Shown here: positions 14,373 through 19,114 of the stretch, one piece after another
Numbering within the stretch: the stretch's first letter is position 1
Layout: every line of letters starts with the position of its first letter
Source of the DNA: a phage
Assembly (NCBI GenBank): GCA_012813795.1
Contig: GCA_012813795.1_4087.1
Direction: 5' to 3' (one strand)
DNA: 64,000 nucleotides
Notes under the pieces: model-generated
What the model saw: the letters and a program-made list of their open reading frames with translations, nothing else
Database searches by the model: none
Told to the model about the DNA's origin: nothing
Translations under genes and position numbers: made by a program

Positions 14373-14797
14373 TAACCTCTACTCTTACTAGTATGTTCAT
14401 TTATTGCATCTACCAGGTCATAACCCTGATAGTTAATACCATCAATTATAACTTTGTACTTATTACGTACCTTTGTGCCATCAGTTTTGGTCCAAATTGT
14501 GTTGTCTGGTGTAATAGATACAGTGTGATTTAAAATGAAATCAAACATCTGTTCCTTTGATAGTACTGTGACATTTTCAGTAATCATATCTACATTGATA
14601 CATTCACGAGTATGCTCAACACCTTCAAAAATGGCAACACCTTCGGTTTCTTTCAGTTTCTGTGCTTGAGCTTTAGCCGTTCCCATATCATCGGCATGAA
14701 CTGTTTCTGTACTGTATTCTACATTTAGTACGTTACCAGTATCTACGTCTTTCCATGTGTCACGAAAATGAACTTTAATCTTTGCTGTATTAGACAC
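14369..14797 (-). CDS. hypothetical protein
   Basis: 142-aa ORF. Confidence 0.5.
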   Translation of the reverse strand: MSNTAKIKVHFRDTWKDVDTGNVLNVEYSTETVHADDMGTAKAQAQKLKETEGVAIFEGVEHTRECINVDMITENVTVLSKEQMFDFILNHTVSITPDNTIWTKTDGTKVRNKYKVIIDGINYQGYDLVDAINEHTSKSRGY

Positions 14798-15254
14798 GAC
14801 CGCTTACCTCATTTTCTTTCAATTTAGAACATACATAGAGAATAGCACCCAATTCGTCACGTGTCAAGTCCTGTAGGTCATATGCCACCTGCATCTGAAA
14901 GTAACTTTCATCACTAAGGTCAGTGAATTGGTCAACATTTTCTACATGCACAAAGAAGTTTTTGGGATCATCATTGTAATGTGAATTATAAGGTCTTATT
15001 GAAAACCCATGACTGTATATATCCAATACGAATTTAGCATTTAAATAGCCCTCTAAATCAAGAGATGCAAGAATCGAATTGGATCTTTCAAAAATGTCCA
15101 TGAAATTATTACGATAAGATCTTGCACAAATCAGTACATCACCGAGTTGGATATCAACTTTCTGTCCAGTCTTGGATTCAGCTAACCCAATGATGTACTC
15201 CATAAACCCAGGAAAATATTTCCTGGATTTAATATCTTTCAGTACTGGACGCAT
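14790..15254 (-). CDS. EE-x-FFQ motif family protein
   Basis: C-terminal DESYFQMQVAYDLQDLTRDEL. Confidence 0.55.
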   Translation of the reverse strand: MRPVLKDIKSRKYFPGFMEYIIGLAESKTGQKVDIQLGDVLICARSYRNNFMDIFERSNSILASLDLEGYLNAKFVLDIYSHGFSIRPYNSHYNDDPKNFFVHVENVDQFTDLSDESYFQMQVAYDLQDLTRDELGAILYVCSKLKENEVSGRV

Positions 15255-15769
15255 TACATGTACCTCGCAAAAGAATCAATCTCTTCTGCATCAATCTTAA
15301 TCATATCTTCTGTACTGCTTGTGAAGATGATATGTCCATCAGGTGTAAATTGCAACCTCTGATTGATTGAGTACTGCATATTACATGAATCATATTCACC
15401 CCAGTCAATGACATATGATGCCATTTTGTCATTTGCACCGAAGAACACAACATGAGTAACATCACGCTCTGACAGGCGATCTACCAATGAAGTTCCGTTG
15501 TAAAAATCAGCCTCCGTGTCTTTCTTAAAGACAATAGCAAACTTCTTCAGTACTGATTCAATTGACAAACCATTAGCATAACGATATGCACGTTGCGATT
15601 CATCACCAACATACATGTACAGAATGTCAGTGAACTTGAAGTTTTGAACTTCACAGTTTTCAAATACTAGTTGTACTTCTTCAATGTTACCAAATGCCAT
15701 TTTATATCTCCGTGTACTCATATGTAATTCGATTACATATAGAAACAATTTAAATGTCAACCCATTCAA
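15254..15769 (-). CDS. hypothetical protein
   Basis: 171-aa ORF inside the paralog array, motif not evident. Confidence 0.5.
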   Translation of the reverse strand: MNGLTFKLFLYVIELHMSTRRYKMAFGNIEEVQLVFENCEVQNFKFTDILYMYVGDESQRAYRYANGLSIESVLKKFAIVFKKDTEADFYNGTSLVDRLSERDVTHVVFFGANDKMASYVIDWGEYDSCNMQYSINQRLQFTPDGHIIFTSSTEDMIKIDAEEIDSFARYM

Positions 15770-15790
15770 ATCAGACAGTTATGTGGTCGT

Positions 15791-16258
15791 TCACACTGTA
15801 CCCTTATTTGGAATCATTGCACTTAATCTTATTAAATCACGAATTTCTTCATATGTCAAGTCATGGATATCATGTAGAGTTTGAATCTGGAAGTACTGTT
15901 CTTCGGTTAATGGATGATAATTAGCACCAACTTCAATGTGACAGATTTCTGTGCTCTCAATAACTGAACTTAAATCCAAATTAACAGCATTAAATGGTGT
16001 TAAATGTAATGTAACACCACCGGAATTCACAATTACAGTGTATGTACGTTCGGTTCCCCTGTACATGTGTAGCCTCAGTGAGTGAATTTTCTCAAATGAA
16101 GTTGCAGCCCCATGAAGTTTATATGCATATATCTCAATGCTATATGAAGCATTCCATTGTGATGGATGATAACGGCACATCTTTTTTACCATCATGTCAA
16201 TTGCAGCACCCACCATACGACCCAAGTACTCACGATTAACTACTTGATCAAATCGCAT
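15791..16258 (-). CDS. EE-x-FFQ motif family protein
   Basis: C-terminal TEEQYFQIQTLHDIHDLTYEEI. Confidence 0.55.
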   Translation of the reverse strand: MRFDQVVNREYLGRMVGAAIDMMVKKMCRYHPSQWNASYSIEIYAYKLHGAATSFEKIHSLRLHMYRGTERTYTVIVNSGGVTLHLTPFNAVNLDLSSVIESTEICHIEVGANYHPLTEEQYFQIQTLHDIHDLTYEEIRDLIRLSAMIPNKGTV

Positions 16259-16659
16259 CTGAAATCCTCAATAAATTTCTGTACTGAAACCATCAACTCA
16301 TAAGGAATTCGCATATCTTTCACAGTGCTATCCTGAAAGTACTCTTCTTCAGTAGTATACAACTTACTAGCTGCCATTTTAACATCTTCAAAATCATCAT
16401 GAAAGAATTCGTTCTCATTGACAATAACATTAATACGTGCGTCATTAACCAATGTACCAGGAACTAGGTGAATTCCAAATGATAGACCACTTTTAATATC
16501 CTGAATATGGATAGTCAGAACACCATTATTCAGATAGCACCAGTTTTCATCTCCGAAGTAAACGTTCAATCCTTCACCTGGATAACGAAACTCACCATGA
16601 TTATCAAGTGCATTGATGATCATTTCATTGTATTCTGTACTTAACTTATAATTTTTCAT
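16240..16659 (-). CDS. EE-x-FFQ motif family protein
   Basis: C-terminal TEEEYFQDSTVKD. Confidence 0.55.
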   Translation of the reverse strand: MKNYKLSTEYNEMIINALDNHGEFRYPGEGLNVYFGDENWCYLNNGVLTIHIQDIKSGLSFGIHLVPGTLVNDARINVIVNENEFFHDDFEDVKMAASKLYTTEEEYFQDSTVKDMRIPYELMVSVQKFIEDFRCDLIK

Positions 16660-17571: not shown

Positions 17572-17600
17572 AGTATAACATTTGTGGCATTGAAAGTCAA
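17572..17600 (-). promoter_or_regulatory. sigma70-type promoter overlapping terminator
   Basis: TTGACT-N17-TATACT on minus strand; predicted start site falls inside the terminator stem. Confidence 0.45.
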
Positions 17601-17850
17601 TACCAAAATCAAAAGTAATAACCTAGAGGGAGGGTAGTTATTACTCGTTTAGTGACATATATAATGATAAACAGGAGGTAAAAAACATTATACATGTTAT
17701 ATCTCTCCAGAACTACAATGATAGGTACTGGACCTGGAGAGAATGGAAAGACAAACCACTCACAGTACCATTTTACGACAAAATATGTGATAGCTTCTGA
17801 AAGAAAAAGGAGGATTCAGTACTGCTCCAGAAGCTATCGGTATAACATTT

Positions 17851-18129
17851 TCAGTACTGAATGTTTAGTTTAGGATGAGTATGTCCATCTTCGATTTGTT
17901 TTAGAATCGAGTCACGAATTTCTACTGCCCCTTGATAACTATATTTATCTCGTGGGATCACCCATGTATATTCACCATCAGTGGTTTTAAAATCAATACA
18001 CGGGTTATCTTTATATTCAGATGCAACCATTGCAATTACATGAATAGAATTCAAAGAATGATTAGAATACGGATAATTATCTTTGAACTTAAAGGTCTTG
18101 AGTTCTTCAGGAGCTACAATGAATTCCAT
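17851..18129 (-). CDS. hypothetical protein
   Basis: 92-aa ORF. Confidence 0.45.
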   Translation of the reverse strand: MEFIVAPEELKTFKFKDNYPYSNHSLNSIHVIAMVASEYKDNPCIDFKTTDGEYTWVIPRDKYSYQGAVEIRDSILKQIEDGHTHPKLNIQY

Positions 18130-18344
18130 TATTCATCCTCGTACTTCTTAAATGGTGGTACTGTTACATTGAAGTCTTTGCACATTTTAGTGGAACGAAC
18201 TTCAGTGTTGTTGTGGTAATTCTTCTTAAATTCATAAGAAACAAAATTACGAATACCTGGTGTATGAATAATTGCAAGAACAAAGGTACGACCAAAAAGA
18301 CATAACAAATTCCAGAACATATTAATCTCCAAATTAGTAGGCAT
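18129..18344 (-). CDS. hypothetical small membrane protein
   Basis: 71 aa with hydrophobic segment. Confidence 0.4.
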   Translation of the reverse strand: MPTNLEINMFWNLLCLFGRTFVLAIIHTPGIRNFVSYEFKKNYHNNTEVRSTKMCKDFNVTVPPFKKYEDE

Positions 18345-18696
18345 TAATCAAACGTGATACATCTAGTATAGCGTTAATCTCTTCTAATGTCAAGTCACCA
18401 ATGTCATTTATCATTGAGTACTGAAACAGTGATTCTTCAGTGTAATTGCATTCTGGTACAGCGATAAGGATAGGCTGCTTGGATACGTCCAAAGTTATTT
18501 TAGCCATTGTGCTATATATATCAAATTGATATAATTGATTTTTGGAAGTATATGATATGTATATATTATTTGATTCAGATGGATGTACCAAGGTAAAACC
18601 ATCGTAACATAATAGTTTAATGTTCGGATCGTCAAAATTGCCTGTATAAAGGTTCTTTCGAACATCTTGTATTATACGTACTATTAGACTAGTCAT
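18334..18696 (-). CDS. EE-x-FFQ motif family protein
   Basis: C-terminal TEESLFQYSMINDIGDLTLEEI. Confidence 0.55.
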   Translation of the reverse strand: MTSLIVRIIQDVRKNLYTGNFDDPNIKLLCYDGFTLVHPSESNNIYISYTSKNQLYQFDIYSTMAKITLDVSKQPILIAVPECNYTEESLFQYSMINDIGDLTLEEINAILDVSRLINAY

Positions 18697-19114
18697 TTAA
18701 TGGATTTATTACCTCTACTGGAATCAACTTTTGAACTTTAAGGATAGCACTAATGTCCTCAAATGTTAATCCTAATGTGTTGTTAACGAGGCAGTACTGG
18801 AAGAATTTTTCTTCAGTATTTACATCGTCAACATTCAATTCAATTGATTTATCATCTCCATCTTCAACATCAAACTCAAAATCATAAATTCTGAATATCA
18901 CACGTTCAAAATACACATCAATTGAATAAAAATATTTACCCAATGTATAACCCATGAAAATATTAAAACATGTATTTAAATCTGTTGTTTCATGTAAATT
19001 TGTGTCAAAACAAAAAACTCGCACTTCACCAATATTATCTATATAATCATCTTTGAGTGACCATGCGTTGTTTTTTAATACATAGTTTACCATTTCAACG
19101 ATGTTGTATTTCAT
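18689..19114 (-). CDS. EE-x-FFQ motif family protein
   Basis: C-terminal TEEKFFQYCLVNNTLGLTFEDI. Confidence 0.55.
   Translation of the reverse strand: MKYNIVEMVNYVLKNNAWSLKDDYIDNIGEVRVFCFDTNLHETTDLNTCFNIFMGYTLGKYFYSIDVYFERVIFRIYDFEFDVEDGDDKSIELNVDDVNTEEKFFQYCLVNNTLGLTFEDISAILKVQKLIPVEVINPLND

Follow-up and report, generated by a model that had tools for sequence, protein, structure and literature searches.

An unnamed superfamily of small proteins with one near-invariant helix, expanded in jumbo coliphages

Gene organisation of array 1

We analysed a 64-kb window of phage DNA (from contig GCA_012813795.1_4087.1 of assembly GCA_012813795.1; 34% G+C, nearly all genes on the minus strand), in which seven genes between positions 14790 and 19114, here called array 1, encode small proteins that share a motif close to their C-termini. 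These genes belong to a new, unnamed lineage-specific expansion of small phage proteins, which is unusual in its scale and in the near-invariance of one helix. The window comes from an Asteriusvirus jumbo coliphage: between 14000 and 20000 its sequence matches that of Escherichia phage A4 (ON286972, 355,528 bp, genus Asteriusvirus) at 97.9% identity, and from ~17770 onward the window is ~88% identical to other 121Q/PBECO4-like jumbo coliphages. All seven open reading frames (ORFs) were confirmed on the minus strand, co-oriented as the first-pass annotation had reported, with ATG starts and products of 120–157 aa. The array and its flanks are laid out as follows, with the evidence for each feature in parentheses (PHROG families are given by number; HMM, hidden Markov model; the superfamily HMM is described below).

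19497..19524, minus strand: perfect sigma-70 consensus promoter, TTGACA-16-TATAAT, upstream of the tRNA-Thr and of the first block of array 1
19131..19204, minus strand: tRNA-Thr (TGT), immediately upstream of 18689-19114
18689..19114, minus strand: family member, 141 aa, motif TEEKFFQYCL (ORF; phrog_17453, E 3.7e-54, residues 1-138; the protein modelled by AlphaFold)
18334..18696, minus strand: family member, 120 aa, motif TEESLFQYSM (ORF; phrog_17453, E 6e-44; 8-nt overlap with the upstream gene)
18129-18344 and 17851-18129, minus strand: two small non-members between array-1 members (ORFs; without a superfamily HMM match)
17544..17570, minus strand: terminator-like hairpin of 12 pairs with a T-run after it, between the two blocks
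17126..17521, minus strand: family member, 131 aa, degenerate motif QEEMYEQLCF (ORF; phrog_35192, E 1.3e-20; first gene of the second block)
16656..17129, minus strand: family member, 157 aa, motif SEEEYFQESL (ORF; lineage-restricted)
16240..16659, minus strand: family member, 139 aa, motif TEEEYFQDST (ORF; phrog_24027, E 2.2e-19)
15791..16258, minus strand: family member, 155 aa, motif TEEQYFQIQT (ORF, PHROG, superfamily HMM)
15254..15721, minus strand: non-member within array 1, phrog_2349, of unknown function (PHROG match; no superfamily HMM match at E<=10)
14790..15254, minus strand: family member, 154 aa, motif SDESYFQMQV (ORF, PHROG, superfamily HMM)

The first block (A) runs from 19114 to 17851 and holds two members and, after them, the two small non-members; its genes overlap by 8, 11 and 1 nt. 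The second (B) runs from 17521 to 14369 and starts with three members that overlap the following gene by 4, 4 and 19 nt, after which come a 69-nt gap, a non-member, a member and a further non-member. The 329-nt gap between the blocks (17522-17850) contains the hairpin (17570-17544). For the gene at 17126-17521, the fifth in order of coordinates, a longer ORF reaching 17590 is available; as this would cross the hairpin, and as an AGGAG site precedes the ATG at 17521, the start was placed at 17521 instead. The suggestion that the seven genes are translationally coupled could be retained only in part. Coupling is plausible within the two blocks, given the overlaps of 8, 4, 4 and 19 nt and the Shine-Dalgarno-like sites found ahead of array-1 gene starts, but the array as a whole is interrupted by three non-members and the 329-nt gap.

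The motif and the extent of the superfamily

The motif lies 31–41 aa from the C-terminus in the seven array-1 proteins. Its original wording, (S/T)EEx(F/Y)FQxSL, was too strict: a relaxed form is present in all seven, but the literal form is complete only in 16656-17129, and the other proteins deviate from it at 1–3 positions. The pattern [ST]EE.[FYL]FQ occurs 9 times in the minus-strand ORFs of the window, as against 0.004 expected from 2000 residue shuffles (~2000-fold), and an HMM built from the seven array-1 proteins retrieves more window ORFs at E 1e-8 to 1e-4. The similarity is thus not compositional, an outcome that had been named beforehand as one that would undo the family.

Two observations on the DNA could favour an artefact, whether of composition, of a DNA-level repeat or embedded promoter, or of decaying duplicates: an 11/12 promoter-like site lies in the 3′ part of five members, and the Leu-Thr of the conserved tail after the motif is encoded by TTGACA in three. 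Against this, the codons at the conserved residues are mixed. Serine is encoded by TCA as well as by AGT/AGC, so that both serine codon families are used, and glutamate and glutamine each use both of their codons; selection therefore operates at the level of the protein rather than on a DNA repeat or an embedded promoter, and the latter origin of the motif was ruled out. The member ORFs are also intact and, judged by substitutions relative to A4, appear to be under purifying selection (ratio of nonsynonymous to synonymous substitutions per site, pN/pS, of 0.38 for the family and 0.21 for its neighbours; 44 substitutions in all), and orthologues are kept as far as Klebsiella phage RaK2. With the excess over shuffles, this leaves an artefact with practically no probability, and artefact explanations of the family similarity are excluded.

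We built a superfamily profile from the window members and their database matches. Eighteen window ORFs match it, with E-values from 3e-20 to 3e-9 that are clearly separated from those of the remaining ORFs; these are the seven of array 1, seven of a second array (array 2) and four others. The members outside array 1 are listed below; the gene at 38090-38641 and a PTH2 gene (36281-36691) sit among those of array 2.

35051..39156, minus strand: array 2, with seven members at 35051-35473, 35470-35910, 35907-36287, 36678-37103, 37093-37527, 37545-37940 and 38719-39156
30429-30872 and 31236-31712, minus strand: two members flanking a non-member gene (superfamily HMM)
23571..24074, minus strand: divergent member, 167 aa, motif DEDAHFQESL (superfamily HMM)
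173..598, minus strand: member, 141 aa, motif TEEGVFQSSL (superfamily HMM)

A degenerate motif was also seen in 21695-22078 (EEDEFQKRTV; borderline, superfamily HMM E 1.4e-4) and in 25779-26171 (SDEDEFQKIT), both on the minus strand, which may represent a more divergent subfamily.

The whole phage A4 genome was then scanned with the superfamily profile, in seven pieces. This yielded 39 further members in the rest of A4, all on one strand: 28 at 30.7–49.3 kb, seven at 53.7–73.8 kb, three near 118–135 kb and one at 330.6 kb, with none between 150 and 263 kb, the structural and replication part of the genome. The total for A4 is ~57 of ~596 genes, or roughly 10%. The motif is visible in nearly all A4 members, and 29 of the 39 already matched before the profile included any of them. 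One member (A4_348; 178 aa, motif SPEEYFQESLV; 37063-37599 of the piece L003) is annotated in A4 as 'DNA ligase', a label that is probably wrong, as the true ligase appears to be A4_451.

Beyond A4, 1.84 billion representative proteins were searched exhaustively with HMMER, which gave 125 superfamily clusters (at 50% identity) at E<=1e-3. Their lengths are almost all 90–220 aa, and EEx[FYLVWIM][FYW]Q is present in 96 of 119. The two long family proteins (278–329 aa) are tandem fusions of two members rather than fusions to known domains. Sampled clusters lie on jumbo-phage contigs, some of which were assembled within 'E. coli' genome projects. A profile search of a collection of 5.8 billion clusters gave only seven matches, owing to its E-value scale, which makes the exhaustive HMMER search the more informative of the two, and tblastn with the HMM consensus returned nothing useful (the conserved segment is short, and low-complexity filtering was active).

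The distribution of individual members suggests both old and recent components. Klebsiella phages RaK2 and K64-1 encode full-length relatives of the array-2 member 38719-39156 (47.6% identity to RaK2 ORF184), and more weakly similar proteins are encoded by Erwinia phage Hallingskeid, Salmonella phages 7t3 and Munch and Klebsiella phage fENko-Kae01. The RaK2 locus as a whole (ORF184-198, with members ORF184, 186, 187, 189, 191, 196 and 198) is syntenic with array 2, with the same PTH2 gene embedded (RaK2 ORF188) and a DNA methyltransferase downstream. A structure search of BFVD also found members in GAP32, CBB, RaK2 and fHe-Yen9-03. Given these relatives and the synteny, part of the family predates the split of these genera.

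Array 1 looks different. The segment from 14000 to 17770, with five of its seven genes, matches only A4 among 50,697 phage records, and 16656-17129 has no relative beyond its own near-identical cluster among the 5.8 billion protein clusters. For 18689-19114 there are 92 orthologue clusters at 60–90% identity, all on Asteriusvirus-type contigs, and phAPEC6 has a different set of members at the array-1 position. Elsewhere, A4_148 (117 aa, motif TEEEYFQMST; 10298-10660 of the A4 piece L001) has no counterpart in the window at 22061-22521, where the flanks are 81–98% identical but the window instead contains unrelated DNA with a 79-aa ORF (22264-22503); a member can therefore be present in one and absent from the other of two near-identical phages. 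From these comparisons, array 1 is younger or faster-moving than array 2, and the family is restricted to RaK2-like jumbo phages, with both ancient syntenic members and recent turnover.

Several neighbouring genes were noted in passing. The PTH2 gene within array 2 (36281-36691, minus strand) encodes a PTH2-type peptidyl-tRNA hydrolase (PF01981, E 2.6e-18). Close to the array, 32273-34171 (minus strand) encodes a 632-aa C5 cytosine DNA methyltransferase (PF00145, E 4.9e-29) that is split by an intein with Hint, LAGLIDADG and intein-splicing domains; its RaK2 counterpart, ORF194, is much shorter (297 aa), so the intein is presumably absent there. The feature at 20972-21063 (minus strand) is a tRNA-Ser whose unusual anticodon, ACT, is the assignment as called by ARAGORN, the tRNA itself being confirmed by Rfam. 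Beside the tRNA cluster, an HNH/NUMOD4 homing endonuclease gene (21124-21648, minus strand; PF07463, E 6.5e-11; PF13392, E 1.5e-5) is located where the window has no alignment to A4, and looks like a mobile insertion.

Predicted fold and comparison with known families

We modelled the product of 18689-19114 with AlphaFold2, using its orthologues and paralogues as the alignment, and obtained a confident model (mean predicted local distance difference test, pLDDT, 89.9; predicted template modelling score, pTM, 0.83). It consists of a helix (residues 5–15), six strands (within 19–94), a turn (95–98) and two C-terminal helices (101–110 and 118–128). The motif, T100-E-E-K-F-F-Q-Y-C-L-V110, forms the first long C-terminal helix, in a block with pLDDT of 96–97, and this helix is joined directly to strand 89–94 through the turn, without a linker. 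The conserved L-T-[YF]-E-D starts the second C-terminal helix, and only the last ~12 residues are of low confidence. Among 91 orthologues, the motif helix is the least variable element (entropy 0.15 vs 0.92 for loops). A model of 16656-17129 from a paralogues-only alignment had a pLDDT of 49.6 and the same order of elements.

Across the superfamily the consensus reads L-T-E-E-E-F-F-Q-Q-S-L-V-Y-D-F-G-D-L-T-Y-E-D-L, and in an alignment of 131 sequences the key positions are conserved at 95% (E), 94% (E), 97% (F), 93% (Q), 82% (S) and 76% (D). The motif positions that vary (x3, x7 and x11) share one face of the helix, and the conserved positions take up the rest of its circumference, a pattern that points to a core helix. 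On this helical periodicity, the motif helix would be buried and form part of the structural core.

The rest of the protein is far less conserved. The N-terminal bodies of the seven array-1 proteins have no pairwise BLAST match at E<0.01, in keeping with the first description of them as different, but they are still weakly related: with a profile built from bodies only, held-out bodies score a median of ~5 bits vs ~1.3 bits for shuffles, 16–31% of them exceed the shuffles' 99th percentile, and they also outscore reversed controls. BFVD models of members with 11–21% identity align over their full length with template modelling (TM) scores of 0.42–0.66. The models thus suggest one compact fold, in which a helical layer is conserved and the sheet and loops have diverged. 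The first-pass picture of a docking tail on variable bodies is not supported, since the motif is an integral high-confidence helix without a linker and the bodies are divergent versions of one fold. What multiple alignment, HMM, structure prediction and the search of other phages do support is a true paralogue family with the motif as its signature and relatives in other phages.

Two short functional motifs that the conserved block resembles were tried and rejected. For a 3C/TEV-type protease site (E-x-x-Y-x-Q|S/G), E-E-x-[YF]-F-Q fits positions P6–P1, but many residues are seen at P1′ (Q, L, E, Y, D and others) and the segment is predicted with confidence to be a helix within a domain rather than an exposed linker; no 3C-like protease is found in the phage A4 annotation, which is itself incomplete. 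For the sliding-clamp motif QL[SD]LF, QLSL[IV] is present in some members only, position 2 is variable, position 5 is V/I instead of F, and the segment is helical and internal rather than a disordered terminus.

The family was not recognised by the first-pass annotation, and database searches bear this out. Pfam gave no significant match for 20 family proteins or for 23571-24074, and NCBIfam, PADLOC (defence proteins) and a profile search of all PDB sequences gave no match for the family. In PHROGs, the members are spread over more than 10 separate families, all of 'unknown function' (including phrog_17453, 35192, 24027, 24941, 23322, 30841 and 21500), with matches as strong as E 3e-66 (phrog_23322); the weakest among the array-1 genes is that of 16656-17129 (E 7e-4). 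PHROGs thus splits the superfamily into small unlinked families without a name, motif or function, and its unity over ~57 copies is not recorded there. Nor did term searches turn up any description of the family in genome papers on 121Q/PBECO4-like phages, RaK2, CBB, Sharanji, phAPEC6 and fEgEco12, in a comparative jumbo-phage survey or in titles and abstracts on Asteriusvirus.

There are partial precedents for such an expansion. The RaK2 authors report that ~10% of its proteins are paralogues (PMC3622015), and Bacillus phage G is described as carrying a ~35-copy zinc-ribbon family (Iyer et al. 2021, PMC7824862). The likeness lies in a small-protein family amplified to dozens of copies in one jumbo phage. 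The zinc-ribbon family differs in fold and motif, and a share of ~10% of genes for one superfamily is towards the top of the range. Term searches of these papers gave no mention of the present family.

Expression, possible function and significance

The window is rich in promoter-like sites. We found 34 sigma-70 matches at >=11 of 12 positions, 33 of them on the coding strand, and 11 are perfect (TTGACA-N16/17-TATAAT), compared with ~0.1 perfect matches expected per strand by a rough base-composition estimate. Minus-strand examples outside array 1 lie at 46644-46616, 45436-45408, 40249-40221, 25782-25754, 12070-12043, 8356-8328 and 2912-2885. Such a density may mark a region that host RNA polymerase reads early, and the genes are probably transcribed early by the host sigma-70 enzyme. 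The same early-type region also encodes a sigma-70-family factor (5360-6067, minus strand; Sigma70_r3, E 1.2e-10; r2, E 1.3e-4).

The products have the character of soluble proteins. The median isoelectric point (pI) of members is 4.84 vs 5.76 for other window ORFs of 100–180 aa, with 83% vs 41% below 5.5, and the grand average of hydropathy (GRAVY) is negative in 17 of the 18 window members, which are thus hydrophilic overall. As to their location, phAPEC6 was scanned for members at 15–59 kb, and the eight found there (gp039c, 054c, 083c, 084c, 087c, 088c, 093c and 103c) are absent from the 62 virion proteins identified by mass spectrometry (PMC7247149, Table 1). We infer that the products remain in the infected cell and are not packaged in the virion.

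Considering these data together, we tentatively favour, at somewhat less than even confidence, the reading that the family consists of diversified early cytoplasmic binders for host takeover or counter-defence, with the motif as their structural core. The proteins are small (~100–210 aa), mostly acidic, soluble and single-domain, and in the predicted fold a helix at the N-terminus precedes a six-stranded antiparallel beta-meander, after which come two helices at the C-terminus. The signature TEExFFQxSL...D..LTYED corresponds to these last two helices and would be the conserved core on which the fold depends. The genes would be read early by the host sigma-70 polymerase, and their products would stay in the infected cell. 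There, the diversified surface of sheet and loops would allow each paralogue to bind a different target during takeover, either a host protein or a host-defence protein. Tandem duplication followed by divergence would account for the growth of the family, with array-2 members being ancient and conserved and array-1 members turning over between near-identical phages through gain, loss or replacement. A repertoire of effectors or anti-defence proteins, as proposed in the first-pass annotation, is thus a plausible idea, since likely early expression, expansion in tandem and differences in member content between near-identical phages all fit it.

Known systems offer two comparisons. The early takeover and counter-defence sets of T-even phages, T5 and T7, and anti-CRISPR loci, consist of small, often acidic non-virion proteins that are variable and clustered behind strong host-type promoters; unlike the present family, in which all are paralogues with one invariant helix, they are mostly unrelated proteins. 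The polymorphic-toxin immunity arrays of the SUKH and Imm types are tandem arrays of small, fast-diverging alpha+beta paralogues that keep a few signature residues. They differ from the arrays described here in that the latter have no Pfam Imm/SUKH match and no toxin genes nearby, and lie in a lytic phage rather than in a bacterial conflict locus.

Several points weigh against the binder reading. Relative to A4 (44 substitutions), the ratio of nonsynonymous to synonymous rates (dN/dS) gives no sign of diversifying selection, and the second structure model, that of 16656-17129, is of low confidence. Early timing is read from promoter consensus matches alone, absence from the virion from one proteome of a related phage with 15–59 kb of phAPEC6 scanned, and term searches of the literature on these phages yielded no partner, phenotype or expression data. 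The E-E, Q, S and D residues, moreover, are conserved at about 75–95% while the rest of the protein drifts, which is more than a purely structural role usually needs and would also fit a shared ligand or partner.

The last point leads to the main rival, hub docking, a sharper form of the docking idea in the first-pass annotation, in which the conserved helix pair would be a common interface that plugs ~57 target-binding bodies, as adaptors, into one machine, such as a phage Clp-type unfoldase/protease or a host hub. The extreme variability of the bodies suits this, as does the retention of the polar motif residues (E, E, Q, S and D, about 76–95% across 131 divergent sequences) beyond the usual demands of packing, and A4 annotates a ClpA-like protein (A4_579) together with a Clp protease, a ClpP/crotonase-like protein and another protease (A4_455, A4_467 and A4_469; annotations taken as given). 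The motif is, however, a high-confidence helix integral to a single compact domain without a linker, its variable positions share one face of the helix, as they would if that face were the exposed one, and nothing ties the family to the Clp genes, which are >30 kb away. We consider such docking unlikely, and its fuller form slightly less likely still, namely that the TEExFFQxSL helix links ~57 recognition bodies to one hub as an evolvable adaptor arsenal that degrades or hijacks host and defence proteins. A distant kinship with p32/gC1qBP/MAM33 (PF02330), with the family acting as acidic oligomeric chaperones or decoys, is quite unlikely. Those proteins are acidic, combine a helix, an antiparallel sheet and two helices, and form oligomeric rings, so that element order and acidity are common to both, and p32 is the top match of a Foldseek search against the PDB. 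That search gave no match below E 0.26, though, none of 10 members matched the MAM33 Pfam model at E<=1, and the evidence falls short of homology.

Genomic context supplies two further alternatives. A translation-related role, by binding tRNA, the ribosome or translation factors, could explain why array 1 directly follows the tRNA-Thr under the same promoter, beside a five-tRNA cluster, and why a PTH2 gene is embedded in array 2 in an arrangement kept in RaK2. We regard it as very unlikely, as this evidence is adjacency only, the largest block of members (A4 30.7–59.5 kb, ~34 members) has no annotated translation genes nearby, and acidic proteins are poor RNA binders. Least credible of these, indeed highly improbable, is a place for the family among virion, internal-head or injected proteins. 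Other jumbo phages do have paralogous internal proteins, and phAPEC6 gp077 and gp078c, which lie near members (equivalent to window ~11.5–13.5 kb), are virion proteins themselves; but none of the eight phAPEC6 members is among the virion proteins, the genes lie in a sigma-70 promoter-rich region and not in a structural module, and A4 has no member within its 150–263 kb.

Whichever role applies, about one in ten genes of a 355-kb coliphage belongs to one superfamily that is unnamed in domain databases, with a predicted fold that has no significant relative among solved structures by Foldseek search of the PDB. Jumbo phages of this group are being isolated with therapy in view, and over 80% of their genes carry the label 'hypothetical'; a name for the family would merge dozens of these per genome into one question. 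The near-invariant motif offers a handle for HMM-based annotation, for mutants that separate folding from function and for asking whether members share a partner. If the proteins are indeed takeover or counter-defence binders, the family would represent a ready library, built on one stable scaffold, of many specificities against E. coli, Klebsiella and Salmonella proteins.

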